Origin: Vairimorpha necatrix
Lineage: Eukaryota
Direction of reading: 5' to 3'
NCBI GenBank assembly: GCA_036630325.1
Contig: CP142727.1
Coordinates: 124,001 to 188,000, forward strand
DNA: 64,000 nt
A model generated the notes under the pieces. The model saw nothing but the letters and a program-made list of their open reading frames with translations, was not told where the DNA came from and made no database searches. The stretch's first letter is position 1. The number at the start of each line of letters is the position of its first letter. A program made the translations under genes and the position numbers. Of the stretch, positions 9,601-33,950 are shown piece by piece.

Positions 9601-10330
9601 AAACTATTTTATTAGGTAAAAAAGAAATTACAATTTATTAAATTTTTTGTTCAGCATATCTTTTTCTGTTAACGTCTATGATTATCTTATATTTCGTAAA
9701 ATATATCAAAAATAAGGTTATTGAATAATAATTTATTTGGTTTTTCTTTTTTTGCAATACGTCTCCTTATTAACTATCAGAAATAACCCTTATCTATTGC
9801 TTTTTCGACTTCAACGATGACTTTTCAGCGATTGATATCATTTTCGATAGTTCACAAAGGACTTTTTGTGTAATATTGGATGCCTTGTATTGCTTTTACT
9901 CTATTTTCTATTATAAAATACGACCTTATATCTTAGTTCTTGTGTTCTTTGTTATTACAAAAGTATTATTAACAATGTTATTTTTCTAATGTCAATTTTT
10001 TTCGATTGTAAATATGGTAAATCTCCGTATTCTTGCCATTTATAATATAAACTGTGTCGTAGATTCTAGGTATTTTTTAGCATATGGCGGCACATAAAAA
10101 GTTATTTGATACAAATATTCAAAATAAAAATCGGATAAAAAAAAATATAAATTTTATTATAGTTTAATTTGATGATTTTTGTTAATGTAAAATTTTATAT
10201 AAGTATAAATACGAATTTAAATTTTACAATTTCGAAGCATTTTTTTGAGAATAACTTGATTTGTTGCATAAAAGGGAATAATTACCCTAATCAAAAAAAT
10301 CGATGGGTTTAATTAGTGCAATATATGAGA

Positions 10331-13300
10331 TGTTATATATTCTTATATTTTTGATCCCTAATTATGATAAATAAATACATGGGGGCGATACCGAATTGTA
10401 AGTTAACAAGTGTTGGCTGTGGTCAAGAGGCCAGAAGGTTATTAGAAGAGTTTAAGAGGATTGTTTATGGATTAGTATTGTCTGATTATGATTTTGAGAA
10501 AAATGTAAAGAAGGAGATTTTTGATCTTGGAACTGATGAGTTGAAAAAATTTATGGTTAAGAATATTAAGATTGGAGATCATTGGAAAGTTATGGAAACC
10601 AAATTAGAGGAATTGGTTAAAGTACAGGAGGAAAAGGGTATGAGATTACGGATGATTGAGGAGGTCACAAAGATTGTGGCAGAGGAGATTAGAAATATTA
10701 GTAGAGAGGAAAGAATATTTGAAAATAGAGGAACAATGAGATGTTATAATTGTTCAAGAATGGAACATAAGAGTCAGATGTGTTATTATAGATATAGAAA
10801 TGTTAAGAATAAAGACGAATGTGACAAGATTAAAGATGAAGGTAGCAGTAGCTGTGATGAAAGGACTTATAGGAACACATGGAATGCTAAAAGACAAAAG
10901 AAACAAGAATGGAAGACAAGAAATAAAAGATGTTATGATGAGGTAGAAAAGAACGGTCTAACATTATAAGACATGAGAAAGAGGTTTAGGAACGTTATAG
11001 ACAACGAAGAAGAGAAAATAAGATATTGTAAAATTGAAAAATGCAGAATCAAAACTGAAGAAGGTAAGAAAGTTGTAAGGAAAGGTCAGCAGGTGCCACA
11101 AGCGCATAAAGAAGAGCTGAGAAAATATATTCAGAGGTTAGAGACAAGGAATGTCATAAGAAGATCGACGTCGGAATGGAGAAATCCGATTAAAGCTTTA
11201 GTTAAGCCAGATGGAAGTATAAGACTGGTTAGCAATCTCATAGCATTAAATGATTTAGTGGAGAAAGACCCCTATAAATTAGTGAACATTAGGGATATCA
11301 TAAGGAACACGCAAGGATCGAAGTTTTTCAGTGTTATATACCTTAAGGGGGCTTTTTATGGAATCGAAATAGAAGAGCAAGACAAGCATAAGACTGAATT
11401 TGAGTATGATAAGATAGTATATGAATGGAATAGTATGGTCATGGGGTTTAAAAACTCGCCTCAGATCATGCAGAGAATTATGAATAAGATTTTTGAAAAA
11501 CATTTGGGTGGTAAAATAAAAGTATACATGGATGATATAGTGATTCAAGCGAAGACTAGAAAAGAACATGATAAATTATTTGTAGAAGCGATGAAATTGT
11601 TAAAACGGAATAATATGCGGATAAATTCAAGGAAAATTCAGTATTGCCAAAAGGAAGTCAAGTTATTGGGAGTTACATTAAACGGAGATGATATGATGCC
11701 GTCTGAAATCAAGAAAAACGAAGCACTAGAGTTTCCAACGCCGCAAAATGTGTCTGACATAAGAAGATTTTTAGGACTGAGTGGATGGTTTCGAGGATTT
11801 ATTAAGAATTATGCGGAGAAGACATTATATATGACTGAAAGTTTGAAAGGTAAAAGTAAAGTATTGAATTGGACTGATGACTTAAATAAAGAGTTCGAAA
11901 ATATAAAGGAAACGTTAAGAAGTATGAGTAAGTTGAAAATTGTAAACTATGACAAGGAATTTTTATTAAGAACTGACGCGAGCAATATAGGAATGGGCGC
12001 AGTACTCATGCAGAAGAATGATAAAGAAGAGTGGGTGCCAGTACAATGGGCATCGAAGAAATTCACCCTGACGGAAACTAGATATGGTATAAGTGAAAAG
12101 GAAATGTATGCCATATATTGGGGAATAAAGAAATTTGAGTATGAGTTAAGAGGACGAAAATTTAAAGTAGAAACGGATCACAAAGCATTGGCGGAAATAA
12201 GAAGAAAGCCATGTTTTAATAATAATAGAATTAATCGATGGATTGAAAAGATCCAAGAATTTGACTTTGAAATAGATTACAGGAAACCAGAACATATGGT
12301 CGTGGCGGATGCCTTGAGTAGGATACACGAGGAGGTTGATCCAAGAAAAGAAATGATAAAAAAAAAAGAAGTGAGCGTCAAATTGAAGGTAAATGGTTGA
12401 AGCACGTCGAGACAATAGACGGTAAAGAATACTGGAATTTTGATTCGGGGAGGAAAGCATTGATTCCTAAAATAAAAGAAAGAGATGAGCTTATGAGACG
12501 TTATCATGAAGAGCATGGACACAGATGACTAGAAAGCATGTATTATGCCATGAAGTTTGATTATTATTGGCCAGGAATAAAAGAAGATATAGTGAAAATA
12601 ATAAAAAGATGCGAGGAGTGTCAAATTTACAATAGGAAAAAGTCTGGAGGATGTGATTTTGTTGCTACAAGCAGGTATTTAGAAAACGTAGCGTTAGATT
12701 TAATTGATTTTGGAGATAAGGGCAAATATGTATTAGTTGCGATAGATTACCATACGAGGATAGCGTGGGGATGTGTATTATACGATAAGAAGAGATCCTC
12801 TGTGGCCCAGTTTATTGAGAACTTATGTAGAAATGGCAGGAGGCCGAAGGAAATAATAACGGATAATGGGAAGGAATTTGATAATGTTGACTTTAAGGAT
12901 TGTGTAGAAAATTGGATATAACCCATAAAAAGGTGAGTGTCGAGTCTCATAGAAGCAATAATAGAGTTGAAAGTGTTATAGGAACGCTTAGAGAGCTAAT
13001 ATTTAAAATGAGTAAAGAGACGGCGAGTTTTAAAGACATAGTGATGGAAAGCTTTAAAATTTATAATAATAGTTACCATGAAGGTATAAGAAGTACTCCC
13101 AATGAAGCGGTAAAAGACAATACGGGAAAAATGATGATATTAAATGGACCAGAAGGAGACTACAGTAAAAGATTTGTTAGAAGATATAGAGAGCGGTTTA
13201 TTGAAGGACAACGAGTAAGGATAGCTGAGAAAGAAAACATCAAAGGATGTAATAAATACGAAAAGGGAAGGTTTTTAGACGAAGGTATTATAATGGTGAT

Positions 13301-13475
13301 ATGCCCTGGGGACTCGTATGTTGTGAAGCTATCTAATGGGCGATATGTTAAAAAGAGACATTATGACTTGAAAAATCTGCTTGGGGTTAATGGTGATGTA
13401 GGAGACTAACCGTCTTGGAGGGGGGATGTTATATATTCTTATATTTTTGATCCCCAATTAAGATAAATAAATACA
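10331..13475 (+). mobile_element. Ty3/gypsy LTR retrotransposon 1 (3145 bp, 49-bp LTRs), coding region disrupted
   Basis: LTRs 10331-10379 and 13427-13475 (TG...CA, 2 mismatches). TSD TGAGA on both sides. PBS TGGGGGCGATACC at 10380; PPT GGAGGGGGGA at 13417-13426. CCHC knuckle, RT YMDD, RNase H TDAS and integrase TDNGKEF. Confidence 0.95.
10364..13409 (+). pseudogene. gag-RT-RNaseH-integrase polyprotein of element 1, broken by stops and frameshifts
   Basis: Four ORF pieces (10364, 10973, 12538, 12900) are colinear with the intact 1037-aa ORF of element 2. TAA at 10967 aligns with Glu in element 2 (TL*D vs TLED). Confidence 0.9.
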
Positions 13476-13944
13476 TGAGATATTTATTAAATTCAAGGAA
13501 TATTATCTTAAAAATACATATACGCAAATAAAATAATTAATTATCAATGAACGCTACAAATATGCTGCAATTTTATTGTTACTACAAATCATCATATATG
13601 TGTTATTTCATTTAACGTAATACATGGTAGAAAATAAAGGAATTTCACAAATTTTTGTTACCTATGATATTTAATGCAAATAAAAAACATATTTTAATTT
13701 TTAAATAAAGCTAAAATATAATTAGAAACAAAGAAGATAAATTTTTAAACTGTATTTTTTTCCTTGCAATCAAATGTTGCTGTTTAATGTATCATTAATT
13801 TACAATTTAAAATTATACTTTGTTCCATGCAATTAAATTTCTTATACATAAACAGTATTTTTTGTTAAGTATATTTATTTTAATATAAAACCATCAAAAA
13901 CATTTTCTTAGGATATAAAAGATACTTTATCAATATCCCTAATT

Positions 13945-14877
13945 ATGTTTGTTATTTTATTGATTATAGATTACGGCCTAGGAAATGATAATCCAGACTT
14001 CACTTCAATAAAAAGATTTTTTTACGAGCCAAAGCGACTTCTGATTAAATGTAAATCGAAAAATAACGATTATGATAAACAAAAACTTTATTCTTTTAAC
14101 AAAAGACATTGTGCTTGTAAGCATACGTCAACACTTACAGATGCTTCTTTAAATAAAAAAATACAGTCAGTAAATATGCAAAATATTTCAAAATTTATGG
14201 ATGAAATGAAAAAATACAATCTAAAAAATAGTGATATCCTTGGAAATATTGATTATTATAATCGTCGTATTAAATGTTTTGACAGCCTTTTGCGTCAATG
14301 GGAAAATGAAAATTTTAATATAGCCATGACGCCCGAAAAAGTTGTATTCTCTAATACAAATAATCATAAAAAATTTATGTCTGATAAAATAATACATAAT
14401 CGATGGATGAGAAACTACAATGATTTATTAAAAGTATATTTGCCGCTGATTAAAAACGGGATAAAAAATTCATCTATATCTCAGATCAGTAAAAAAACAA
14501 TAACTAAAAAAATTGACTCTATTATGAGAGCAATGTCGTATTTTGAAAACTTAGAACCAAAAAATTTAAGGTTCGACTGCTATAGTAATGTTGTAATTTT
14601 TCGATATAATTTGATAAGTTATAGGTTTCCTTACTTATTTGACTATTTTGATTTGTCTGGGAGATTTGTAAATTTATATGAAATGATAATTATACATGAC
14701 ATTGATAAAGAATTTAATAGTATCAACATGATAAACATACTAAGTGGTATATCGAAAAAAATCGAAAAATTAATCAAAACTCGTGATGAATATATAAATT
14801 CCATAAGAGAAATGCTAAAATACTTGGAAAATTTAAAAAATATGAAACAAGTTTCGCTCGAATATTTCGAAAAATAA
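13945..14877 (+). CDS. Family A protein (310 aa)
   Basis: CCCTAATT before the ATG. Motifs NIDYYNRRIKCFDSLLRQWE, IMRAMSYFE and YRFPYLFDYFDL. Confidence 0.8.
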   Translation: MFVILLIIDYGLGNDNPDFTSIKRFFYEPKRLLIKCKSKNNDYDKQKLYSFNKRHCACKHTSTLTDASLNKKIQSVNMQNISKFMDEMKKYNLKNSDILGNIDYYNRRIKCFDSLLRQWENENFNIAMTPEKVVFSNTNNHKKFMSDKIIHNRWMRNYNDLLKVYLPLIKNGIKNSSISQISKKTITKKIDSIMRAMSYFENLEPKNLRFDCYSNVVIFRYNLISYRFPYLFDYFDLSGRFVNLYEMIIIHDIDKEFNSINMINILSGISKKIEKLIKTRDEYINSIREMLKYLENLKNMKQVSLEYFEK

Positions 14878-15229
14878 AACATTTTAAAGTAATTAGTTAT
14901 TTTTTTACTTTAATCTAGATTATGCAAATAAAATTTAATTTGGCTGTCTTTCTTCAATTTTTCTGTTTCCTCTTCATTTTTCGAAAAATAATTAAAATAC
15001 TTTTATTATTTGCAAGAAAAATTGAATAGAGATATTTTTCGATTAGGTTAGAAATCCAACATGATGAATTTGGGGACCATTAATTACATTTCGGTGTATT
15101 CATTCTTTGCTTAGTAAAAAAAATATGGTTCGACGAAACATTTTATATCGTAATTCTTACAATAGGTTTCGACTTGGCTACGATTCTTTCTTAAAATTTT
15201 ATATGTTGTTAGTGCTCATATAGAATCTC

Positions 15230-16212
15230 GGCTAAAGTCCACTTTAGTTGACAAAAATGCATATAGGGTTTTTTTGTATTTCTTACCCCTTTTCTTTAAA
15301 GATAGAGGAAAGAATCTTAACAAAAGAAGAAGTGGAAATCAGATATAATGAAAAGTAATGGAATTAAAAAGGCAGCGTTGTTATATATGTTTTGGTAGAA
15401 TGATAAAAGTGTGTAAAGATGGTAGTAATTTAAAATGTGTGTGGAAAGATTATAAAAATACAATTTTAATTCGGCATGAAACGTTCATTCATAATTGTAA
15501 ACTCGAAAATATAACATGTTTACAGATATTAACACATGAAGTTTTGGTTATTCTCGTTAGCATATTTGTCAAATTTTGAGTTGTACGAAGAAATTTAAAG
15601 AAATACGCATTTACGTTAAGTATTTATTCCTCTAAATAGGATAGGCGGTTAAGGTATAAAAGTAGAAATTGACGAAACAAAGAATGAAATAAATAAATAT
15701 CACAGAGATAAATTGGTGAAAGGCTTCTGGTGTTTTGGTATGGCCGAACGTACCATAGAACGTATAATAATAATCTTACATATTGAAAAAAATGATAAGG
15801 TTACACTTACTTATCTTTTATTGAAATATGTAAGATAAAATAGCATAATATATAGCATATGTGGAGAGCCTACCATTCTTTAGGTACTTTATATAACCAA
15901 CACCATATGGTTAACATTCATTACATTATACAGATTAAAATACAAGAGTTCATAATAACCTCATAGAAGTCGATTGGCGTATTCTAAAAAATTATATACC
16001 TAATAAAAACAGATCAGTAAATAGTGCAAACTTTATTTACCTAAGTATATGTTCCAAAGTAATTCCTCGGCTTCAGTTTTTTACGAATTTTTAAAATTAT
16101 TATTCTAATTGTAATTGTCGGTCCACTCATAACATTTTGGTTCCTCCACCTTTAAAGAAAGGGGGCAAAACCCCCCTATATGCATTTTTGTAAGCTAAAG
16201 TGGATTTTAGCC
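15230..16212 (+). mobile_element. Degenerate Merlin (IS1016/IS1595-like) DNA transposon
   Basis: ~39-bp TIRs (GGCTAAAGTCCACTTTAG.. / ..CTAAAGTGGATTTTAGCC). Relic transposase motifs IGG*GIKVEIDETK, KYHR and FWCFGMAER. No exact TSD. Confidence 0.75.
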
Positions 16213-16394
16213 AAAACTTCTTAAATTAAAAAATTATAATTATATTAAGATAAAGCAAAGAAAACATTTTCTTTATTGAGAACATTTTAATGACATTTTT
16301 AATTATTTTTTGCTATACTTTGACGTTAGCCGAAATATGAGGTTAAAGAGTATTCTTTATATAATTGCCCATCTTCATAAAATCAGAGATGTAT

Positions 16395-18195
16395 TGTCAC
16401 AGTTAGTTGGTGGAACCAGTTAGTAGAGGGAACCCTAAAAAAATTTATTAAAAAAGACCCCCGTGGGAATCGAACTTGGGACTTCTCGAAGGAATACAAT
16501 CACAATGAACGACTTTTTTGAGACGGTTCTAAATTTGTCCTAATTATATTATGGGGTATATTTCGAGTAATTTTATATAAATTTGGAGGGAAAAGAAATA
16601 AAAAAATAAAATAAACAACTTTTTAAAAAATTTATTCGTTATCAAGCAATCTTAGATCTCTAGTGTAAATTTCTTCTATAATAACCAATGGATCAGCTTC
16701 TTTAGATAACTTTACTTTATTAAATTGAAGTATATCCATTACAATATATACATCGACATCCAAATGTTCGTATAGAGGAAGCCTTCTAGTACTTTGATTA
16801 TTGTCTAAATATGGTCTTATAAGAACCCTATCTCCCAATTTATATTCGTAAAAGTCATTTCTCCACATACTTTTTTCAATCATTCTATTAGCAGCATTTT
16901 GAGTATTAAACCGTGCAGATTCGTGGTAAATTTCATTTAAAAAAAGATTTTCATTGTTTAAAGCATATAGTTTTTCGTAATTTACGACGTTATTTTCTTC
17001 AAAAACAAATTCTTCTCTTCGTTCTTCTTCCTCATTTTCAACTTCGTTGTTATTTGCAACCGAATCTATTATATCAGTGATTCTAGATTCTTGCATTATG
17101 TCTTTAATGGGCTTACCAAACATTAAACTGAATGGAGTTTGTTTAGTTGTTGAATGCCTTAAGTTGTTATATGCCCAGGTAACTTCTTGGCGTACTATGG
17201 ACCATTGCCCTAAGATATTCTTCGACCCCAGAGTAGATGCAATCATCCATTTTATTGTTTGATTGCATCGTTCTATCTGTCCTTGTATCCAAGGACATCT
17301 AGCTCTTCCTCTTACATGTCTTATTTCATACTTTACACATAAATTCACGATATATTGATTAACAAATTCTCTACCGTTGTCGGTATGAAGTATAAAACAA
17401 GATCCAAACGTATTGAATAGTGTTTCAAAGGCATCACGCACACTAATGCCAGTTTTGTCACGCAATGGAACCGTCCAACAGAACTTGGTAAATGAATCCA
17501 CTACGTTAAGTAACCATTTATACCCATCATTGAGTTCGTGATACAATCGAAGATCAATCAAATCAGCAATATACCTTTCTCTAGGATATTTTGAAATGAT
17601 TGGTCTAATAACTGGTCTAGTTATTAGGTTTCTTCTTGCTTGACAAATATCACAACTTTTCAAAACTCTCAGTACTTCGTTTTGAGTAACGTCGTATACT
17701 TTTGATTGTAACAATGGATACAATCTGTCACGCCCAGGATGTCCATTAGAAACATGAATCAGTTTGATGAAATCCAGTTTGAAACGCTGCTCATTGGTTG
17801 TAAAGAATTTCAATGATCTATATTGATCTACTTTAAACCTCACAGTTAGTTCAAAACTTCCATTGTTGTTTTCTTCAAACAACATGAAACGTTCAGCTTT
17901 TCTTTTAAAATTTTTACGATCAACTTTGTCCAACAACGTTGGTGGCAGCTGACCATATAATAAAAAATTATAAACTTCTTGTCTTTTATCATTGTCCATT
18001 TTTATTCTCATAACCCCACAAAACAAAAAATTATTTACTAAAAATTGAAGGATAATGTTACTGTATTTTCTTAATAATATTTTTTTTTCCTTTTTTAGTA
18101 AATTTTGTTTTCTTCGAGAGGTCCTGGGTTCGATCCCCACAGAGCTCTTTTTTAGGGTTCCCTCTACTAACTGGTTCCCTCTACTAACTGCGACA
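16395..18195 (-). mobile_element. Ginger-like (Ginger2/TDD-type) integrase DNA transposon, apparently intact
   Basis: TGT...ACA termini. ~48-bp TIR cores contain a 17-bp tandem repeat (CAGTTAGTAGAGGGAAC). 5-bp TSD TGTAT at 16390-16394 and 18196-18200. Single integrase ORF with no RT. Confidence 0.88.
16632..18011 (-). CDS. Retroviral-type (rve) DDE integrase/transposase (~459 aa)
   Basis: HHCC motif (HVSNGH...CDIC), ADLID, HTDNGREF and QGQIERCNQT. Likely start is the ATG at 18011 (after GGGGTT) or the next ATG; the track start lies in the terminal repeat. Confidence 0.88.
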   Translation of the reverse strand: MRIKMDNDKRQEVYNFLLYGQLPPTLLDKVDRKNFKRKAERFMLFEENNNGSFELTVRFKVDQYRSLKFFTTNEQRFKLDFIKLIHVSNGHPGRDRLYPLLQSKVYDVTQNEVLRVLKSCDICQARRNLITRPVIRPIISKYPRERYIADLIDLRLYHELNDGYKWLLNVVDSFTKFCWTVPLRDKTGISVRDAFETLFNTFGSCFILHTDNGREFVNQYIVNLCVKYEIRHVRGRARCPWIQGQIERCNQTIKWMIASTLGSKNILGQWSIVRQEVTWAYNNLRHSTTKQTPFSLMFGKPIKDIMQESRITDIIDSVANNNEVENEEEERREEFVFEENNVVNYEKLYALNNENLFLNEIYHESARFNTQNAANRMIEKSMWRNDFYEYKLGDRVLIRPYLDNNQSTRRLPLYEHLDVDVYIVMDILQFNKVKLSKEADPLVIIEEIYTRDLRLLDNE

Positions 18196-19473
18196 TGTAT
18201 TTATATTTATTTCTGAAACAGCATTTCAAAATTATCATGTTTCAGATGTCAAGAAGACAATCTGATTCGTCCGGACTATCCGCCGTCCATACTATACAAA
18301 CAATTTAGGGCAATTAAATTCAAATTCTTCGTAAAGCATTTACATTCATAATTTAATATAAAAATCAATAAATCAAATTTCTTTGCGGTATCTTTAATTA
18401 ATATTGTGAAAAAGTATAAAGCAATATAGAATTGAATGAATTTGTAATCCCTTTGAACTTCATGTATATGCCGTGAGAGGTTTGGGCAAATTAATATAGG
18501 ATTTAAAGAAAACTGTTCCTACCGTGTAATTAATTTTCGTTTGAACAGACGAGTGTTTCTTGTATTTGTACATTTTTTGTATCTAAATTGAACATAGGAT
18601 GTATTTTAGATTGATGCTGCTTAATATTTTAATTTTAATCTATATTATGCCTCTTAAATTCTATACTGGGTGTAAAGGATATTCTGACGTATTTATCTCA
18701 TTTCAAGATGAAAAGATTAAATAAATTTGACGTCGTGTTCGTCACATAATCACGTGTATAACACGAAGTCCCTTTACACAAAATCAGCTAATAAAAAGAT
18801 AAACATTTATCAATTATCTCATAAATGCTTTGAATTTTACTTATTTTTAATACATCAAGAGAGCCTCGTATAATTTATGCATGGTTACTACCTAAAAATA
18901 ATGTTGTTACCTAAATTTACCAGTTTGCGTGTGTAAGTTGTACTAAATCTTATTATGAGTATAAAATACTAAAGGTCGTTTAATAGAAACAAAAAAGTAT
19001 ATTACAATGTTTTAAATTTTGTATTTGTTTTCTAAATATTGAAATATTATTACTAAAGTTTATTTAGAACAATATCTTCTAATTAATGTCGTTATTTTGA
19101 AGCATATTAAAATTTTGTATGCTTCATCCTTAGAGGTTTCTTATACATGTTAATATATTCATTTATTAAATCAGATTGTGTTTTTGTCCAGAATTTATTG
19201 TCGATATCTATAAAAAGAGCTTTATAAGTTTACATTTTTTATAAAAAGAACTTAATTATCTATGAATCGTGTTGTCATGTATATACGATTGAGTTTTAGC
19301 ATATGTTATGAATTAGTAAACTCTTCTTTTTAACATTATTTTTTAAAGTTTATTCTTGTAGAATATAATATGATTAAAGGCTTTTATTAGATCGGTCAAT
19401 AAATTTTAACAATATTGTTTTAATCCAATGCCAAATTATAACAAACAAGATGGTAATTTTTATCTCCCCTTTA

Positions 19474-20340
19474 ATGTTGCGATATATTTTAGCTGTAGTT
19501 TGTTCGAATATTAGTAAAAGGAATTACTTGAGATCATGAATTAAGCCTAAAAATTTATTTAAAGAAAATGAACTTTTCATCATTGAAAAATCACAAAAAA
19601 ATAAAGTAATAAATTAAAACAGAGAAAACATGCAGGCAAAAAATCTTGGCTTTAATCAAAAAAGACCAAATCTACCGATACGTGTTCCAAAAATATAAAA
19701 AGTTGAATCATATGAATCAGGAGTTTTGTTGACTTTATGAAAACACAATATCTTAATCACCATAATGCTCATACAGTCGAAAGGTCAAACGCGGTTGATG
19801 ATTTTTTAATTCTATGATAGTGAAGAAGTAGTAATATAAGAAACTTCTAAATTATACAGATTTTTAATTAGAGACAAATATATCAAATATAAAGCTTATT
19901 GTGCAAGGAATAGTGACTTGATAAAAATTTTTTGTGAAATTACAAATGTACTATTACCAGAGATTAAAAACGAGATAGAAAAGTCAAAGCTGAAGATTCC
20001 TTTAATGAATTAATAATAAATATTCTAACCTTAATTTTTTGAGCTATGAATTATTATGAAACGTTGTTTCCAAGGAAGTTAAATTAAAGATAGCATTGCA
20101 ATTATTAAAAGCCCTTATATAAGTTGATAATTGAGAGATTGCCTGTTCTTTTCAACTATTTTTATATAAATAAACGCTTTATAGATTTTTATGAAACAAT
20201 TTTATAATTGTACAGAACAAAATCGGAAGATGCAGATTTTATGAAACTTATATTTTAAAATTGTCCATAAAATTCACAAATTTCTAAACGTACATAAAGA
20301 TTTTTTAAATAACGTACAAGAAATTATAGTAATGATATAA
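19474..20340 (+). pseudogene. Family A pseudogene
   Basis: CCCCTTTA-ATG MLRYILAVV, then an early TGA. Relic motifs LLPEIKNEIEKS, AMNYYE and RLPVLFNYF with several stops and frameshifts. End approximate. Confidence 0.7.
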
Positions 20341-20393
20341 AATTTAAAGCATCTCATTAAATTCTTTTTGCAAACAGATTTAGCAAAAAATTG

Positions 20394-20767
20394 TTGGGGT
20401 TTCCATGTTATAAGATCCACCCATAGAAAAGACCATGGATCTTATCTATGGGTGAATCTTTTATTGATATAAGGTATTTAAAATTTCTTTTTAAATTTTT
20501 GAAACTTTACCCCCCCCCCACCCATGAAAAAAAATCTTACACGCTAAAAGAAAAATTAGAAGGATTAGAAAAATTGCGTGAAAACAATGGCAACATAAGT
20601 ATGACTACTTTCAAGTTGAAGATTACTGGGAAAATTAAAGGGTTTCTTTATATTTAATTTTCTACATTTGGTTATGAGGTGGATCTCTTCTACTATTGTA
20701 AATTCCCATTTACAAAGTCGTATAATTCGCTTTTTGGGAGGTGGATCTTATAACCCGGAAATCCCGG
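20394..20767 (+). mobile_element. Internally deleted pogo/Tc1-mariner-like element
   Basis: Imperfect TIRs with core TTTCC..GTTATAAGATCCACC; the right end is followed by TA. Internal CCC-ATG fragment KSYTLKEKLEGLEKLRENNGNIS resembles the N-terminal HTH/Brinker-type DNA-binding domain of pogo transposases. Confidence 0.55.
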
Positions 20768-20777
20768 TAGTATTTTT

Positions 20778-23700
20778 TGTCTTTATTTATCATAATGGGG
20801 GATAGAAATTATACAAATATATCACATCCCCCCCTCAAGACGGTTAGTCTCATCTAATTTTCACATCTACCCCAAGCATACCCTTCAGATCATAATGTCT
20901 ATTCTTCACAAGCCTACCATTACTAAGTTTTACAATATAAGAATCTTTTCCACACTTTTCAACAATTTTTCCTGTATCCAAAAATCTTCCTTTTTCATAC
21001 TTATTAACACCTGCCAAATTTTCTCGTTTAGCTATTCTTACCAATTGACATTTACTAAATTTTTCGATCTTTCCCTTTCCAAACCTATTACAATATTTCC
21101 CTATAGGGCTATTTTCAAGCATTACGTCTCCAGTTTTATCTTTAGTCGCTTCTAATGGTGTACATTTTATTCCCGTATGATAGCTCTGATTATATATATC
21201 GATACTTTTATACACTTTACCTTCAAAAGTATTCGCATCCGACTTTAAAATACTTTCTCTCAAAGTTCCTATAACACGCTCTACTCTTCCGTTACTTCTA
21301 TGCGCTTCTATACTTACTTGTCGGTGTATTATATCGAGATCTCTACAAAATTTTCTAAATTCCACGTTAATAAACTCTTTCCCGTTATCTGTAATAATTT
21401 CTTCTGGTTTCTTCCCTTGCTCACATAATTTTTTCAAAAATCCAACAACATTATTACTTGACTTGTTATTTATAACTACTCCCCATACTCTACGTGTAAA
21501 ATAATCGATAGCAACTAAAACATATTTCTTCTCATTTCTAAAGTCTATCAAATCTAATGCAACCTTCTCTAAGTATCTCGACGTATCTACAAATTCACAA
21601 CCACCCATATTTTTCCTGTTATATATCTGACATTTCTGACACTGTTTTATAACCTCGTTTATTTCTTTCTTTACTCCTGGCCAATAGTATTCTTCTCTCA
21701 TTGCATAATAAACACTTGTCATGCATCTGTGGCCTACTTTTTCATGATATTCTTGGATTAATTGTCTCCTTATATTCTCAGGTGGTATTTCAACTTTACG
21801 TCCTGAGTCAAATTGCCAATATTGCTTTCCATTCTCGGAAGAAACATGTGCTTTCCATTTACCTTCTGTTTGCTTGATTGTTCGCTCTTTATTTTTCATT
21901 TCTTTAATATCCTCTTCCATATTTATTCGACTCAACGCATCTGCTACCATTATCTCATCATGTTTTTTATATTCCACGATAAAATCATATTCCTGTATCT
22001 TCTCGATTAAGCGATTTATTCTGTTATTATTAAAAAACGGTTTATTTCTTATCTCCACCAGTGCTTTGTGATCCGTTTCTATTTTGAATTTCCTACCTCT
22101 TAACTCGTATTTAAATTTATCAATGCCCCAATATATCGCAAGCATTTCCTTTTCTGATATTCCATATCTTATTTCGGTAGGTGTTAGCTTTTTAGATGCC
22201 CATTGTATAGCAACCCATTCCCCATTCTCATTCTTCTGAAGTAACACCGCACCCAATCTCAAATTGCTAGCGTCTGTTCTTAGTATGAACTCCTTATTAT
22301 AGTCCGGTAATCTTAGTCTTCCCATATTTCTTAACACATTTTTCATTTTAGTAAATTCCTCTTTCATCTCTTCCGTAAATTTCCACGAATTGCCATTTTT
22401 CTTCAAACTATCTGTCATTTTCAACGTCAGCCCGGCATAATCTTTTATAAATGGTCTGAACCATCCAGTCAATCCTAGAAACCTCCTCAATTCCGTCAAA
22501 GTTTTTGGATCCGGATACTCCAAGGCTTCATTTTTCTTTATTTCGTCGGCCGTCATGTCTATTCCATTCAGCGTCACACCTAATAATTTTACTTCCGCTT
22601 GTCTAAACTGTATTTTCCCAATATTTAATTTCATTTTATTTCTCTTAATTCTTTCTATAACCTCTATTACTAATTCATCGTGTTTACGTTTATTGTTGGC
22701 ATGTATTACTATATCGTCCATGTATACCTCAACACCATTTCCTCGCAAATCTTCAAAAATCATATTCATTGTTCTCTGTAGTATCTGTGGGGAATTTTTG
22801 TATCCCATCACCATACTATTCCATTCGTAAACTTTTTTATTAAATTCAAACGCCGTCTTATGTTTATCTTTTTCTTCGATTTCAAAATGGTAAAATGCTT
22901 CTTTGCAATCAACAACAGTAAATATTATCGACCCTTGCGTAGCTCTTATTATTTCTCTCATATTAGTTAGCTCATACGGGTCTTTCTCGACTAAATCATT
23001 CAACCCTATAAAATTACTAACTACTCTTACTTCACCATTTGGTTTAAGTATCGCTCTTATTGGGTTTCGCCATTCCGAAGACGATCTTCTTATAATTTTT
23101 CTATTTTCTAAATCATTAATATATTCCTCAGTCTGTTTGATCAAAGCCTGTGGGATCGTCTGTCCCTTTCTGACTATCTTCTTACCCTCTGGAGTATCTA
23201 TCTTACACTTCTCTAATGTACAAAAACTTATAACCTCATCTCCTTGTTTAAAAACTTCTTCATATTCTGCTTTGAGATCTTCCAACGTAAATGCCCTCTT
23301 CAGTAATCTTCTTTTCGTCTCTTTATTGCTCGCATATATTCTTTCTTTATGTCTTCTATCACTATAATTACATTCCTTTAACTTAACTCGTTTTGTCTTT
23401 CCACTTGGTTTATATTCTTTATTATCATTACTGCTACTACAACTTTGGTTTTCGTCTAAATTTAAGTACTTATTAAACTTTTTATTATTTTCCTGATTAT
23501 TGTTCCTTCCTACATAGCAGTTCCTAGCCATATGGCCAAATTTACCACAATTAAAACAATTCCTATTATTTCTTATTTCTTGTACTGTATTCCTTAAAAC
23601 TAAATCTTTCTCTTGAATTTCTTTTCTCACAGTTTCTCTAACATTCTCAGCTATGACCTCCATAAGTTCTCTCCTTTTTTCTTCTTCTTTTTTAGTCCTT

Positions 23701-23996
23701 TCTTCTCTACATATTTCCTCCTCTAATTTCTCAATTATTTTATAATATTCGTCCTCTTTACTAATTCTTTCTACCATGAAATTTTTTATTTCTTCACTTC
23801 CTTCCATAAATATTCTCTGCTTCCACAAACTGATTTCTATTTCCTCCATCTCCAACCTATACATTATTCTTCTAACTTCTTTTAATAACTTTTTGGCCTC
23901 TAGACCACAGTCCACACTTGTAAACTGACGATTCGGTATCGCCCCCATGTCTTTATTTATCATAATGGGGGATAGAAATTATACAAATATATCACA
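20778..23996 (-). mobile_element. Ty3/gypsy LTR retrotransposon 2 (3219 bp, identical 49-bp LTRs), intact
   Basis: LTRs 20778-20826 and 23948-23996 are identical. TSD TTTTT. PBS TGGGGGCGATACC directly follows the 5' LTR; PPT GAGGGGGGGA at 20827-20836. Single uninterrupted ORF. Confidence 0.96.
20850..23963 (-). CDS. Single polyprotein: short Gag + CCHC, RT, RNase H, integrase (1037 aa); no visible protease
   Basis: CFNCGKFGHMARNC; YMDD; TDAS/EKEMLA/TDHKAL/ADALSR; HEKVGH..CQKC, LDLID, TDNGKEF, NGRVER. No D[ST]G motif between the knuckle and RT. Confidence 0.95.
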   Translation of the reverse strand: MINKDMGAIPNRQFTSVDCGLEAKKLLKEVRRIMYRLEMEEIEISLWKQRIFMEGSEEIKNFMVERISKEDEYYKIIEKLEEEICREERTKKEEEKRRELMEVIAENVRETVRKEIQEKDLVLRNTVQEIRNNRNCFNCGKFGHMARNCYVGRNNNQENNKKFNKYLNLDENQSCSSSNDNKEYKPSGKTKRVKLKECNYSDRRHKERIYASNKETKRRLLKRAFTLEDLKAEYEEVFKQGDEVISFCTLEKCKIDTPEGKKIVRKGQTIPQALIKQTEEYINDLENRKIIRRSSSEWRNPIRAILKPNGEVRVVSNFIGLNDLVEKDPYELTNMREIIRATQGSIIFTVVDCKEAFYHFEIEEKDKHKTAFEFNKKVYEWNSMVMGYKNSPQILQRTMNMIFEDLRGNGVEVYMDDIVIHANNKRKHDELVIEVIERIKRNKMKLNIGKIQFRQAEVKLLGVTLNGIDMTADEIKKNEALEYPDPKTLTELRRFLGLTGWFRPFIKDYAGLTLKMTDSLKKNGNSWKFTEEMKEEFTKMKNVLRNMGRLRLPDYNKEFILRTDASNLRLGAVLLQKNENGEWVAIQWASKKLTPTEIRYGISEKEMLAIYWGIDKFKYELRGRKFKIETDHKALVEIRNKPFFNNNRINRLIEKIQEYDFIVEYKKHDEIMVADALSRINMEEDIKEMKNKERTIKQTEGKWKAHVSSENGKQYWQFDSGRKVEIPPENIRRQLIQEYHEKVGHRCMTSVYYAMREEYYWPGVKKEINEVIKQCQKCQIYNRKNMGGCEFVDTSRYLEKVALDLIDFRNEKKYVLVAIDYFTRRVWGVVINNKSSNNVVGFLKKLCEQGKKPEEIITDNGKEFINVEFRKFCRDLDIIHRQVSIEAHRSNGRVERVIGTLRESILKSDANTFEGKVYKSIDIYNQSYHTGIKCTPLEATKDKTGDVMLENSPIGKYCNRFGKGKIEKFSKCQLVRIAKRENLAGVNKYEKGRFLDTGKIVEKCGKDSYIVKLSNGRLVKNRHYDLKGMLGVDVKIR

Positions 23997-24189
23997 TTTT
24001 TTATTAAATTGTTGCTTGTATAAAGAAAAATAAAATAATTTGTAAAATAAAAAAGATTAGTGTTTATAGAAAAAACTCAAGAATAAAAAAGCGGCTTATA
24101 AATTAATACCTTTAAAAATGAACTTTAAAGTTTATAATATAATATAATTTATTTGGGTATAATATTCGGCTTATTAATTACTTTTCACA

Positions 24190-29035: not shown

Positions 29036-29926
29036 ATGTTACAATATATATTGTTTGATATTAGTTTCACTATCGAAACAAATGAAAATAATTTATGGAG
29101 AGGATGGGAAGATCAATCAAAACTTAATTTCGATGAATTACAATTAATTAAAAACAATGATAATAATGTAAAAGAAAATTTATTGAACCAAATATATTCA
29201 TCTTATAGAAGAAGAAATGAAAAATTTAATGCTACATCTAGGAAAAAACCCAAATCAAAGATACTGCTAGGACTTTTAAAAAATTTTAATAACATTAAAT
29301 ATTATAACCATAAGTACAATGACATATCCGAAAACGTGGATCACTATAAGAGTCGTAAAATATGTTTCGATAGTCTTTTTAGACGATGGAAAAATGAAAA
29401 TTTTGATATAAAAGAGATATCCAATGCTAGAAAATTTAACAAAGAAGAAAGCAAAAAATACCTTGAAAATTCCTGCTCATGCAATAGATGGTCAAGAAAG
29501 TATAGTGCGATATTAAAAAAATATTTGCCTAAGATTAAAAAAGAGATTGCAAATTTATCGGCGGATGAAATATATAAACAGTCAACAATTAAAACTATAG
29601 ATTCTATATCTAATGCAATGGCATATTTTGAAAAAATACACCCCAAAAGTTTTAATTACAAAAAACGATATGACGAAATGGTAAATAACTATAGATTGAT
29701 AATTTATAGATTGCCCTATCTATTCGACTACTTTGACCTAGTTGGAAAATTTATAAAACTGTATGAAATGTTAATAGAGCAATGTATTGAAGAATCACCT
29801 GCTTATAACAACATGACAATAATACTATTTGAGATGTCCAAACAAATCATTAATATAACAATACTTCGTGGTGAATATTTAGAAAGAATCAAAAATAAGT
29901 TGAGATTACTGGAGAATTTAAAATAA
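29036..29926 (+). CDS. Family A protein (296 aa)
   Basis: CCCCACT-ATG; MLQYILFDISF; RKICFDSLFRRWKNE, AMAYFE and YRLPYLFDYFDL. Confidence 0.82.
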   Translation: MLQYILFDISFTIETNENNLWRGWEDQSKLNFDELQLIKNNDNNVKENLLNQIYSSYRRRNEKFNATSRKKPKSKILLGLLKNFNNIKYYNHKYNDISENVDHYKSRKICFDSLFRRWKNENFDIKEISNARKFNKEESKKYLENSCSCNRWSRKYSAILKKYLPKIKKEIANLSADEIYKQSTIKTIDSISNAMAYFEKIHPKSFNYKKRYDEMVNNYRLIIYRLPYLFDYFDLVGKFIKLYEMLIEQCIEESPAYNNMTIILFEMSKQIINITILRGEYLERIKNKLRLLENLK

Positions 29927-33059: not shown

Positions 33060-33950
33060 ATGTTACAATATATGTTGTTCATTATTAGTTCCGCCATTGA
33101 AACTAATGAATATAAATTATTGAGAGAGTCAGAGAACTATTCAAGACATGAAATTGACGGCATAAATTATAAAAATTACGACAATAGGGAACTAAATTCA
33201 AATACATCGAATGAGAGATATATCACTAGTAAAAAATTAAAAGCAACATCAAGTAATAAAACAACAAAAAAAACTCGGAAAAAACAATCTTCAGAACTAT
33301 TAAATGTCAAAAATAAATTTAAACGATATAATAATTATTACAATGACATATCCGAAAATACCTTATATTATACTAGACGTAAAATATGTTTTAATAATTT
33401 TTTGAATAAATGGGAGGATGAAAAATTGAAAATAGAAAAGATTTCTCATTATAGAAGATTTAATAAAGACGAAAGCGATCAATATGCAAAAAATTATTGT
33501 CCATGTAATAGATGGTTAAGAAAATACAATGAAATATTAAATAAATTTTTGCCTAGGATTTTAAAGGAAATAGAAAAATCAAAGATGGAAGAAACATTTA
33601 AAAAACAAATAATGGATCATATAAAAATCATATCTAGAGCCATGAGGTATTTTGCAAAGATTTACCCCCAAAATGCCAATTACCTAAAATATTACGACTA
33701 CAATATACTATACTATAGATTAATGGTTTATAGATTGCCTTATCTTTTTAACTACTTTGACCTAGGTGGCAGATTCGTAAAACTATATGAAATGCTGATT
33801 GATCAGTATGTTAATAAACTAGATATAACTAATATCATGACAACAACATTATTTGAGATGTCTGAAAAATTTATCTATGTAATAAAACTTCGTAAAAATT
33901 TTCTAGAAAAAATTAAAAGTAAATTAAATTTGCTAGAGAAGCTAAAATGA
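33060..33950 (+). CDS. Family A protein (296 aa), closest to 29036..29926
   Basis: CCCCATAC-ATG; MLQYMLFIISSAIETNE; YNDISEN, C.CNRW, ISRAMRYF and YRLPYLFNYFDL. Confidence 0.82.
   Translation: MLQYMLFIISSAIETNEYKLLRESENYSRHEIDGINYKNYDNRELNSNTSNERYITSKKLKATSSNKTTKKTRKKQSSELLNVKNKFKRYNNYYNDISENTLYYTRRKICFNNFLNKWEDEKLKIEKISHYRRFNKDESDQYAKNYCPCNRWLRKYNEILNKFLPRILKEIEKSKMEETFKKQIMDHIKIISRAMRYFAKIYPQNANYLKYYDYNILYYRLMVYRLPYLFNYFDLGGRFVKLYEMLIDQYVNKLDITNIMTTTLFEMSEKFIYVIKLRKNFLEKIKSKLNLLEKLK

Follow-up and report, generated by a model that had tools for sequence, protein, structure and literature searches.

A compact retrotransposon and its neighbours

The DNA analysed here is a 64-kb stretch (the window), and our analysis confirmed that positions 20778–23996 of its minus strand hold a complete Ty3/gypsy-type LTR retrotransposon of 3219 bp, referred to as element A. 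It contains one ORF (20850–23963, minus strand) of 3114 nt, equal to 96.7% of the element, which encodes a protein of 1037 aa (P0001). The start codon lies inside the 5' LTR, the frame runs across the LTR/PBS junction with the PBS being read as protein, and the stop codon is 23 nt short of the 3' LTR. The features of element A and of the other elements in the window are as follows.

10326–13480, plus strand: element B, a decayed sister-family member; LTRs 10331–10379 and 13427–13475, TSD TGAGA on both sides, same PBS, broken ORF
20773–20777, unstranded: TSD TTTTT, left copy; matches 23997–24001, low complexity, within a T-run
20778–20826, minus strand: 3' LTR, 49 bp, TG..CA; exact repeat of 23948–23996 (49/49 identity)
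20827–20849, minus strand: whole 3' untranslated region, 23 nt; AGAC..GTCT inverted word, then G-rich PPT adjoining the LTR
20850–23963, minus strand: single Gag-RT-RNaseH-integrase ORF (P0001), 1037 aa; ATG at LTR position 34
21321–21785, minus strand: integrase, H2C2 zinc finger and DDE core, residues 727–881 (Pfam Integrase_H2C2, rve)
21987–22379, minus strand: RNase H, residues 529–659 (Pfam RT_RNaseH and RT_RNaseH_2)
22404–23291, minus strand: reverse transcriptase, residues ~225–520 (Pfam RVT_1 305–465; YMDD at 414)
23292–23516, minus strand: basic disordered linker, residues 150–224, at the place of the relatives' aspartic protease; pLDDT <50 for 159–207, no strand
23517–23561, minus strand: CCHC zinc knuckle, residues 135–149 (Pfam zf-CCHC, E 2.9e-4)
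23565–23912, minus strand: reduced Gag, helical domain, residues 18–133; three short helices and one 60-residue helix, AlphaFold pLDDT >90
23931–23947, minus strand: PBS, 17 nt; adjoins the 5' LTR, translated as residues M6–N11, 17/17 identical in element B
23948–23996, minus strand: 5' LTR, 49 bp; coding strand with A/T-rich TATAATTT box, CCCCC, ATG and AATAAA
23997–24001, unstranded: TSD TTTTT, right copy; from sequence reading
62536–64000, plus strand: 5' portion of a separate Ty3/gypsy element with one protease-bearing ORF; Gag, CCHC, LLDTGA protease, RT start; truncated by the window edge

Element A thus has the direct repeats with TG..CA ends and a TSD of 4–6 bp, the PBS by the 5' LTR and PPT by the 3' LTR, and the order RT, RNase H, integrase with a gypsy-type RT (by Pfam, hhalign and the tree) that define Ty3/gypsy elements (Metaviridae), while the retropepsin-type aspartic protease expected between Gag and RT was not found in it. 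An earlier, sequence-only reading of this DNA had given the element as 3219 bp, filled to about 97% by an ORF of 1037 aa and bounded by identical 49-bp LTRs with PBS and PPT adjoining, all of which recalculation bore out. Of the 5-bp TSD that it also proposed, the presence of TTTTT on both flanks stands, but this is weak evidence alone because the word is of low complexity and sits in a T-run. An exact-repeat search gave 50 nt for the LTR pair, the extra base being flank.

Pfam analysis of P0001 matched CCHC, RVT_1, RNase H, H2C2 and rve, and 25/25 relatives scanned had these five families as well. Within the group A1 alignment, knuckle residue C149 is invariant, and C136, C139 and H144 are nearly so; likewise, integrase residues H740, H745, C775, C778, D804, D859 and E895 are invariant (25 sequences), and an SH3-like tail follows the integrase core up to the end of the ORF. 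The top Foldseek rows for the element A model were the RT fingers of Ty3 and foamy virus. Upstream of the knuckle there is a helical domain of ~115 aa, which together with the single CCHC knuckle agrees with the shortened Gag described previously. Two-lobed capsid matches to this domain were sub-threshold, with the model aligning to Arc, RSV and Ty3 capsid lobes at Z 5.1–5.8, which is weak and below the noise bar for helical models. A phmmer search of residues 1–260 against 1.84 billion representatives returned 140 matches, for the most part generic CCHC knuckles or short pieces of this Gag, and did not reveal the origin of Gag, and an Atlas search with residues 1–150 led to small Gag/CCHC clusters only (scores 0.87–0.92).

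Element B is 64% identical to element A in nucleotides overall, and its ORF is interrupted by stops and two 1-nt frameshifts. Its 49-bp LTRs are alike at 47/49 positions and share 40/49 with the LTR of element A without gaps, the same count as had been reported for a relative at 10331–13475. L001, an unrelated metagenome copy 3163 bp long, has 39-bp LTRs and a TSD of TTATA. It was the sole close relative (51%) among metagenome contigs, from which 463 relatives were obtained and 80 kept, the others being ordinary gypsy matches of 24–33% that were set aside; a viral contig collection gave 44 pattern matches and 0 relatives. Logan-assembly proteins of 996–1039 aa were in 18/18 cases on contigs just 3035–3283 nt long. 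When family members were checked for a protease or longer LTRs, the protease was missing and the LTRs were tiny (49 bp in element B and 39 bp in L001). The protease-bearing element that had been proposed at 62.5 kb is present, with its LLDTGA protease.

A linker in place of the protease

The aspartic protease is absent from element A and is replaced by a disordered basic linker, which across the lineage measures ~55–100 aa. Pfam found no protease family in P0001 at E≤1, and in 25 relatives a protease was missing among the matches listed (25 of 50 families). We built a protease HMM from seven protease-bearing relatives and ran it with --max, which gave 0 matches at E<0.05 among P0001–P0051; the same HMM detected the protease in P0052, P0060–P0063, P0065, P0066, P0071, P0072 and P0096, and in many animal elements. 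Labels of protease absence on the animal Pol-only proteins P0067–P0120 are unreliable and were left out. A 29-sequence alignment of N-terminal regions placed a ~90-aa 'LDTGA...ILG' block in the five protease-bearing relatives only, with a gap in 24/24 close relatives. Further analysis with hhalign, which matched the family to gypsy relatives at E 3e-172, began the alignment between the family profile and the protease-bearing profile at P0001 residue 252, just past the template's protease, and aligned nothing upstream of RT between the family Gag and that of protease-bearing relatives.

Spacing and motif content point the same way. The earlier claim of ~100 residues between CCHC and RT lacking a D[ST]G motif held, with 101 aa from the end of the P0001 knuckle to the conserved RT N-terminal motif and D[ST]G only at residues 719 and 996, in integrase regions far from the expected place of a protease. 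The median spacing between these points is 73 aa in 31 members, and in protease-bearing relatives it is ~150 aa (an estimate from the alignment and motif positions). Residues 150–260 were checked for a retropepsin fold and none was predicted: AlphaFold models of residues 1–320 and of 140–300 alone are both coil and helix, strand-free before residue 302. Foldseek returned nothing at E≤0.001 and no retropepsin for either model, and a wide fold search, which effectively covered residues 11–135, gave generic helical matches to Z 6.5 with retropepsin not among the best 50.

In a tree of 118 rows (a quick search with midpoint root, for which compositional heterogeneity was flagged), a 53-row clade with SH-aLRT 99 comprised 44 protease-less and nine N-truncated rows. 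All 44 of its N-terminally complete proteins are without a protease, and protease-bearing groups lie outside the clade as its sisters. Protease loss maps, as judged from these sequences, to this one well-supported clade, in keeping with the earlier view that the trait belongs to the lineage and did not arise from a single deletion in one copy. The protease-less clade, to which the decayed family of element B also belongs, spans down to ~40% identity, and every member that bears a name is from microsporidia (Nosema, Vairimorpha, Enteropsectra and Nematocida). LSG1, a gene of the host, is likewise microsporidian, its nearest match being Nosema granulosis at 54%, and element A fits the pattern of a single gag-pol ORF in a microsporidian host. 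Gene callers give the relatives' ORFs ordinary protein labels, and bacterial MAG names are attached to some of them.

Replication, terminal repeats and activity

We infer that the lineage of element A replicates without a protease of its own. Its Gag-RT-RNase H-integrase polyprotein would most likely act unprocessed, or host proteases may clip the exposed linker, and the acting form would be a small ribonucleoprotein and not a maturing capsid. Our tentative reading, to which we give not quite an even chance, is of an ancient and still active clade in which the unprocessed polyprotein, with its chaperone knuckle, RT, RNase H and integrase, copies and integrates its own mRNA without an aspartic protease or maturing capsid. 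Comparison of elements A and B gave pN of 0.21–0.27 in RT, RNase H and integrase, with pS saturated at ~0.8, which indicates that these three domains are under purifying selection.

It is unlikely that the lineage instead borrows the protease, and perhaps the capsid, of a co-resident protease-bearing Ty3/gypsy element, such as that at 62.5 kb, with its polyprotein being cleaved in trans. The presence of a protease-bearing single-ORF element in the same window makes such supply physically possible, related protease-bearing groups are sister lineages, and the linker is predicted to be exposed and disordered, hence cleavable. However, the protease-less clade is both deep and diverse (53 rows, ~40% identity, Nematocida to Nosema), RT, RNase H and integrase appear to have been kept under purifying selection, and a history of this kind would require co-packaging with a diverged Gag, when the lineage's own Gag is weakly alignable and hhalign found nothing upstream of RT. 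A conserved cleavage-site motif was also not found. Of the three routes that the sequence-only reading had offered (an uncleaved polyprotein, a host protease, or a protease in trans), the evidence goes no further than to make long-term reliance on a foreign protease the less parsimonious.

Our reading of an unprocessed polyprotein extends to the terminal repeats. On the coding strand the 5' LTR of element A carries the A/T-rich box at positions 14–21, CCCCC at 26–30, ATG at 34–36 and AATAAA at 40–45, with the CCC motif 3 nt upstream of the ATG. Published text on microsporidian gene signals describes an A/T-rich box, a CCC motif just 5' of the ATG, 5'UTRs of <7 nt and AAUAAA (PMC2803860), and a text on Anncaliia notes a GGG motif ahead of the start of a TE polyprotein that was seen by proteomics (PMC4072689). 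Host-type signals in the LTR (A/T-rich box, CCC and AATAAA) plausibly explain its small size, since an LTR built from the host's own miniature gene signals could afford to be so short. With the same reserve as for the polyprotein, we regard the 39–49 bp LTRs as perhaps reduced to a core promoter of host style, the ATG and a poly(A) signal, with little besides. From the sequence, U3 would be ~30 nt and R ~16–23 nt, with practically no U5. The AATAAA is 4 nt from the LTR end in both A and B, so that cleavage is predicted in flanking DNA, an unusual but workable arrangement. The start pattern M-x-M-[AG] or M-[AG] was missing in 7/32 family N-termini.

These cis-acting parts are conserved beyond the proteins. 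The LTR and PBS together are identical at 57/66 positions between A and B against a background of 64% (P=4e-5), which is above the coding region, and the 23-nt 3' untranslated stretch is near-identical in element B and recognisable in L001 despite proteins that are 51–55% identical. Within the 64-kb window, matches to the PBS word and to the LTR core are confined to elements A and B (chance expectation 0.02 and 0.00).

Reverse transcription would be primed by a host tRNA; the PBS of element A resembles the complement of what we take to be the 3' end of tRNA-Pro, and no tRNA genes were found within the 64-kb window. Very unlikely, in our view, is self-priming as in Tf1, where the 5' end of the transcript folds back onto the PBS and no tRNA is used. 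The CCCCCAU of the element A LTR can indeed pair with AUGGGGG of the PBS (7 bp, in A only), but the fold is no better than in shuffled sequences (z −1.6 in A, −0.13 in B and +0.26 in L001) and the pairing is absent from L001. Moreover, families that are 64% alike have the same 17-nt PBS at every position, which is what dependence on an external host tRNA would predict.

The sequence-only reading had called the element apparently recently inserted. The LTRs date the insertion weakly, because 0 differences in 49 bp permits up to ~5.9% LTR divergence (95% bound), and youth is better argued from the intact 3.1-kb ORF. In contigs of three public runs, word depth was higher on the elements than on their flanks, which points to several copies, although depth is not equal to copy number, and some run contigs joined an LTR edge to different flanking sequence; 0 contigs from the three runs bridged an empty insertion site. 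We think it highly improbable that element A is a defunct relic, or has been domesticated as a host gene, and is not a working transposon. A look among the public runs for RNA data containing the element listed none, and an Anncaliia TE polyprotein was read by its authors as possibly domesticated, according to the text of that study (PMC4072689), but in element A the parts that serve transposition only (identical LTRs, PBS, PPT and TSD) have stayed intact and are better conserved than the coding background, several families and numerous insertion contexts are known, and the neighbouring copy, element B, has decayed as expected of selfish elements. Element A is, in our reading, an intact and probably still mobile copy of a microsporidia-specific Ty3/gypsy lineage compacted to ~3.1–3.2 kb, and we find it fairly probable that this account as a whole, with replication lacking a protease of its own, is right.

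To a cryptic or non-canonical protease hidden in the linker or elsewhere in the polyprotein we give next to no weight: sequence tools can be blind here, as Pfam overlooks the diverged proteases that certain relatives carry (P0061, P0063 and P0065 lack a precomputed protease family and yet have a clear protease by alignment and HMM), but the region is a gap and not a divergent block, with its median motif distance of 73 aa, both AlphaFold models predict it to be without β-strand, the purpose-built HMM was empty and the D[ST]G motifs of P0001 are confined to the integrase regions.

Significance and comparison with known systems

In the textbook view, LTR retrotransposons and retroviruses cannot do without an aspartic protease, a capsid of two domains and LTRs hundreds of bases long. 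Contrary to that requirement, a diverse lineage, apparently under purifying selection, manages without a protease or long LTRs and perhaps without a two-domain capsid, and element A may show how little a retrovirus-like element requires for copying itself. If autonomous, it would set a lower bound of ~3.1 kb for a working LTR retroelement and offer a natural system for asking which steps truly require polyprotein processing. Should the unprocessed polyprotein prove to be the acting form, no autonomous LTR retroelement of smaller architecture would be known, and the rule that elements of this class need Gag-Pol processing would have a natural counter-example. Element A also appears to be a mobile element that has taken on the extreme compaction of its host's gene signals. 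Standard LTR finders have a minimum LTR length near 100 bp and would miss LTRs of 39–49 bp, so the retrotransposon content of microsporidia may be under-annotated.

In Ty3 of Saccharomyces cerevisiae and Tf1 of Schizosaccharomyces pombe the LTRs run to several hundred bp, the capsid is two-lobed and the aspartic protease is indispensable, whereas element A has 49-bp LTRs, a short helical domain with sub-threshold capsid matches, and no protease. Shared with element A are the RT-RNase H-integrase order, a CCHC Gag, a 5-bp TSD and a tRNA-type PBS by the LTR. Tf1 resembles element A further in its single gag-pol ORF, but is self-priming, which is not supported in element A. TRIM and LARD elements are non-autonomous LTR elements with zero coding capacity that depend fully on helpers; they resemble element A in having very small terminal repeats or missing functions, but are noncoding, whereas element A encodes a complete RT, RNase H and integrase with invariant catalytic-type residues.

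Also comparable are the Nbr1–8 LTR retrotransposons of Nosema bombycis, which are Ty3/gypsy elements of a related microsporidian genus and likewise have a single polyprotein; according to a text on the work of Xu et al. 2006, 'nearly all' of them encode Gag, protease, RT, RNase H and integrase (PMC2474625), whereas the lineage of element A is without protease. Parisot et al. 2014 describe microsporidia-specific Ty3/gypsy clades with gag and pol fused in one polyprotein ORF (PMC4202319; cited again in 2026, PMC13174016). Element A has the same fused gag-pol ORF in a microsporidian host and almost certainly falls within one of these three groups. The running text of these papers mentions protease 0 times and gives no LTR length (PMC4202319, PMC13174016), and figure 1A or the supplementary consensus sequences of the 2014 study may show the same architecture. 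A search of the literature for an existing description of the architecture, made in searchable text as distinct from figures and supplements, found no statement of a microsporidian gypsy lineage without protease or with LTRs <100 bp.

A further comparison is with the protease-bearing relatives (P0052, P0060–66, P0071, P0072, P0096 and the element at 62536–64000 of the window), which are sister lineages with a single ORF of ~1000–1140 aa on contigs of ~3.4–3.5 kb. Given these compact ORFs and contigs, they are probably mini-LTR elements too, but unlike element A they have kept the ~90-aa LDTGA...ILG protease, and their Gag is longer and includes a Retrotrans_gag-like block.

Element A, its relatives and its neighbours

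Element A is a Ty3/gypsy-type element on the minus strand at 20778-23996, and using sequence reading and a repeat finder we recovered all the main parts first proposed from the sequence alone, namely a 3219-bp element with identical 49-bp LTRs, a PBS, a PPT and one ORF filling ~97% of its length (3114 nt, 96.7%). The gap between the stop codon and the 3' LTR is just 23 nt.

Features of element A (window coordinates)
20778-20826, minus strand: 3' LTR, 49 bp, exact copy of 23948-23996
Adjoining the 3' LTR, minus strand: PPT, a G-rich purine run directly before the LTR on the coding strand
20850-23963, minus strand: single ORF, 3114 nt, 1037 aa
23931-23947, minus strand: PBS, 17-nt word beginning with TGG, directly 3' of the 5' LTR on the coding strand
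23948-23996, minus strand: 5' LTR, 49 bp, with TG at its start and CA at its end on either strand

The 5-bp target duplication of the sequence-only reading stands in part: five T's lie at each end, which fits such a duplication, but this is weak evidence since the site is a T-run. Within the 64-kb window the PBS word and the LTR core were found only at element A and at element B, a decayed relative from a sister family (chance expectation 0.02 and 0.00 matches, respectively). The regions holding the two elements (20001-24000 and 10001-14000) have a G+C content of 0.30-0.33 compared with a host background of about 0.23-0.27, and their GC and AT skews are strong and strand-specific (purine-rich coding strand).

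Element B (10331-13475, plus strand) gave the same counts as had been claimed for it, with 49-bp LTRs that match those of element A at 40/49 positions. Its own LTRs are 47/49 alike, it has a clean TGAGA duplication and the same PBS (17/17), and its ORF is interrupted by stops and two single-base frameshifts. Overall identity between the elements is 64%, against which the LTR and PBS together (57/66) are better conserved (P=4e-5). Among 80 metagenome loci (the best 80 of 463), the sole close relative was on contig L001, at 51% protein identity. This element, 3163 bp in length, is bounded by 39-bp TG..CA LTRs at 540-578 and 3664-3702 that are 98% alike; its target duplication is TTATA, its PBS begins with TGG and its PPT region is similar. 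LTRs of 39-49 bp and 5-bp duplications are thus present in 3/3 elements viewed at the DNA level. The 23-nt stretch before the 3' LTR (20827-20849 minus; 13404-13426 plus; L001 3641-3663) is nearly identical in elements A and B and conserved in L001, although the proteins of these different families share only about 51-55% identity. Immediately ahead of the PPT's G-run this stretch contains an inverted word, AGAC..GTCT, and it may serve as a signal for plus-strand priming or for packaging.

A tblastn search across the window recovered elements A and B together with two other loci: at ~17 kb an unrelated integrase standing alone, and at 63.8 kb the beginning of the RT of a further element. The latter (62536-64000, plus strand, cut by the window end) is the 5' part of a protease-bearing single-ORF Ty3/gypsy family, with a Retrotrans_gag-like Gag, a CCHC knuckle and the start of RT; as had been reported, it carries a protease (LLDTGA; Pfam gag-asp_proteas, E 3e-5). 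Its ATG is followed by a TGG-initial PBS-like word. The integrase-like ORF (16632-18200, minus strand; Integrase_H2C2 and rve; 459-522 aa) has no RT alongside and no LTRs within 14800-19400. In one public run a contig connects 16395 with 18224 through 22 other letters, and this segment may be variable between samples. Three paralogous ~300-aa ORFs without a Pfam match (13945-14877, 29036-29926 and 33060-33950, all plus strand) have the common motif '..YR.PYLFDYFDL.G.F..LYEM..', two of them sharing 46% identity (E 3e-79), and are probably a lineage-specific multigene family. A further 459-aa ORF (8221-9600, plus strand), also without a Pfam match, equals the integrase ORF at 16632-18011 in length and is unrelated in annotation. 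The LSG1 GTPase gene beside element A has best matches of 71-73%; among named species these were Nosema granulosis (54%) and Encephalitozoon or Ordospora (43-45%), which identifies the window as microsporidian DNA.

A polyprotein lineage without a protease

Pfam analysis of P0001, the 1037-aa protein of element A, gave the following domains, with no protease family at E<=1.

Pfam domains of P0001 (residues)
135-149: zf-CCHC
305-465: RVT_1
529-659: RNase H
727-783: Integrase_H2C2
804-881: rve

D[ST]G occurs solely at residues 719 and 996, and the interval between the CCHC knuckle and RT is without it, as first noted. Retropepsins are rich in beta structure. An AlphaFold model of residues 1-320 (30 aligned sequences, mean pLDDT 72.6) showed a confident helical domain (helices 18-39, 44-54 and 57-66 plus a 60-residue helix 74-133, all with pLDDT >90), the zinc knuckle, a segment of pLDDT <50 (159-207) and the RT fingers, represented by their helices and first strands, with no strand before residue 302. 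Likewise, residues 140-300 modelled alone (38 sequences) formed coil and then three or four helices, with no strand, and Foldseek returned no match for either model at E<=0.001, its best rows for the 1-320 model, above that threshold, being the RT fingers of Ty3 and foamy virus. The expectation that residues 150-260 hold no retropepsin fold is therefore borne out by these models. An exhaustive VIA structure search gave only generic helical matches (top Z 6.5); Arc C-lobe, RSV capsid CTD and Ty3 capsid NTD matched residues ~14-92 at Z 5.1-5.8, which would be compatible with one surviving capsid-like lobe but is inconclusive, as these scores are below the noise bar for helical models.

Of 8000 candidates in a homolog search with P0001, 736 proteins scored at E<=0.001. 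Among the best 120 of these were dozens of ~1000-aa proteins with 40-63% identity to P0001, the named homologs being from Nosema granulosis, Vairimorpha necatrix, V. apis, Enteropsectra breve and Nematocida species, and the first 60 (P0002-P0061) had no precomputed protease family. P0018 and P0065, eukaryotic retrotransposon proteins labelled 'MAG: ... [Clostridium sp.]' by NCBI, most likely come from microsporidian contigs that were wrongly binned with bacterial metagenome-assembled genomes. Logan-assembly proteins of 996-1039 aa were on contigs of 3035-3283 nt in 18/18 cases, which leaves no more than 30-170 nt beyond the ORF.

In a MAFFT alignment of 29 N-terminal halves, the ~90-aa block 'LDTGA ... 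ILG' common to five protease-bearing distant relatives (P0061, P0062, P0063, P0065 and P0066) was a gap in 24/24 close relatives, P0001 included. Upstream of the knuckle these are also missing ~60 aa of the Retrotrans_gag-like block. We built a protease HMM from this block in seven protease-bearing sequences, including the 62.5-kb ORF, and with all filters off it matched P0052, P0060-P0063, P0065, P0066, P0071, P0072, P0096 and many animal elements, with 0 matches in P0001-P0051 at E<0.05 (best P0008, E 0.071, inside RT). When the family profile (25 sequences) was compared with that of the protease-bearing elements, 737 columns aligned (E 3e-172), beginning no earlier than P0001 residue 252, just beyond the template's protease. 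Spacing from the knuckle to the RT N-terminal motif had a median of 73 aa (range 54-193, n=31 members).

A maximum likelihood tree of the RT-to-integrase core (118 rows; quick search, SH-aLRT, midpoint root, compositional heterogeneity flagged) placed 44 protease-less proteins with a complete N-terminus and nine N-truncated ones in a clade of 53 rows (support 99). Protease-less P0056, P0057 and P0059 and protease-bearing P0052 branch at the base of a larger, 57-row clade (support 100) that encloses this one, with the remaining protease-bearing compact groups outside. This pattern is accounted for by one protease loss, two at most, and the architecture is a lineage trait, as first proposed, not a one-off deletion. 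Element A is a Ty3/gypsy member by RT/integrase descent and cis-anatomy that has no protease.

Signals, activity and mechanism

The ATG of element A (23963) is at position 34 of the LTR, and the frame crosses the LTR end such that the PBS is translated. N-termini of 32 family proteins with complete Gag read M-x(2-7)-M-[A/G] in 17, M-[A/G] in 8 and otherwise in 7, the internal Met-Ala/Gly being the in-frame reading of the ..CA|TGG.. LTR-PBS junction. On the coding strand the LTR contains an A/T-rich TATAATTT box (14-21), CCCCC (26-30), the ATG (34-36) and AATAAA (40-45), and CCC just 5' of the ATG is also found in element B, L001 and the 62.5-kb element. Because of these host-type signals, and the microsporidian 5'UTRs of <7 nt described in a passage of Peyretaillade et al. 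2009 (PMC2803860), we predict a U3 of ~30 nt, comprising an integrase-recognised end and a host-type core promoter, an R of ~16-23 nt and essentially no U5. None of the RNA runs among the public runs listed contained the element. The AATAAA of elements A and B sits 4 nt short of the LTR end, and cleavage is therefore expected in the flank; in L001 it lies upstream of CCC.

Several features were taken as evidence for activity. The LTRs of element A are identical, its 3.1-kb ORF is open despite ~30% G+C, and the catalytic-type residues (YMDD; RNase H D564, E604, D631 and D675; HHCC; integrase D804, D859 and E895) are invariant across 25 sequences. Between elements A and B pN was 0.21-0.27 in RT, RNase H and integrase, compared with a saturated pS of about 0.8. 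In contigs of three public runs, word depth was higher over the elements than their flanks (depth not being equal to copy number) and LTR edges were joined to other sequence. The recent insertion proposed earlier agrees with the intact ORF and identical LTRs, but 49 bp bounds LTR divergence only to below about 5.9%.

We prefer a mechanism in which the polyprotein would act unprocessed, or be cut by host enzymes within the linker, which is long, basic and disordered, because the clade is old, diverse and selected, and because the shrunken Gag is unlikely to build a maturing shell. In the alignment of 29, the linker of most members has a conserved KR(K/R)-type cluster just 5' of RT, which could equally be a nuclear-import signal. 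Co-resident families such as the 62.5-kb element, present in the same window, may instead supply protease in trans. The family Gag could not be aligned to that of protease-bearing relatives by profile-profile comparison, which makes co-assembly with them doubtful and is a further reason for our preference. A cryptic protease is very unlikely given the null HMM result for P0001 and the strand-free CCHC-RT region in both AlphaFold models. For priming, the evidence favours a host tRNA over self-priming of the Tf1 type, because diverged families share an identical PBS and the fold-back is not significant and has not been conserved; the PBS presumably resembles the complement of the tRNA-Pro 3' end.

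Comparison with described elements

The observation on element A is confirmed and its initial interpretation supported, with protease absent from all 44 clade members that have a complete N-terminus. In the text of Parisot et al. 2014 (PMC4202319) the word protease is absent and matching passages give no LTR length, while the relevant part of a 2026 genome paper (PMC13174016) still cites only their statement on microsporidian Ty3/gypsy elements. Searches of full-text literature found no description of a gypsy lineage that lacks a protease or has LTRs below 100 bp (figures, supplements and Repbase being outside this search), and the architecture may be implicit in consensus sequences already deposited. 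The lineage of element A, without a protease, differs from the elements of Nosema bombycis, 'nearly all' of which have Gag, protease, RT, RNase H and integrase according to a passage of Williams et al. 2008 (PMC2474625) on Xu et al. 2006.
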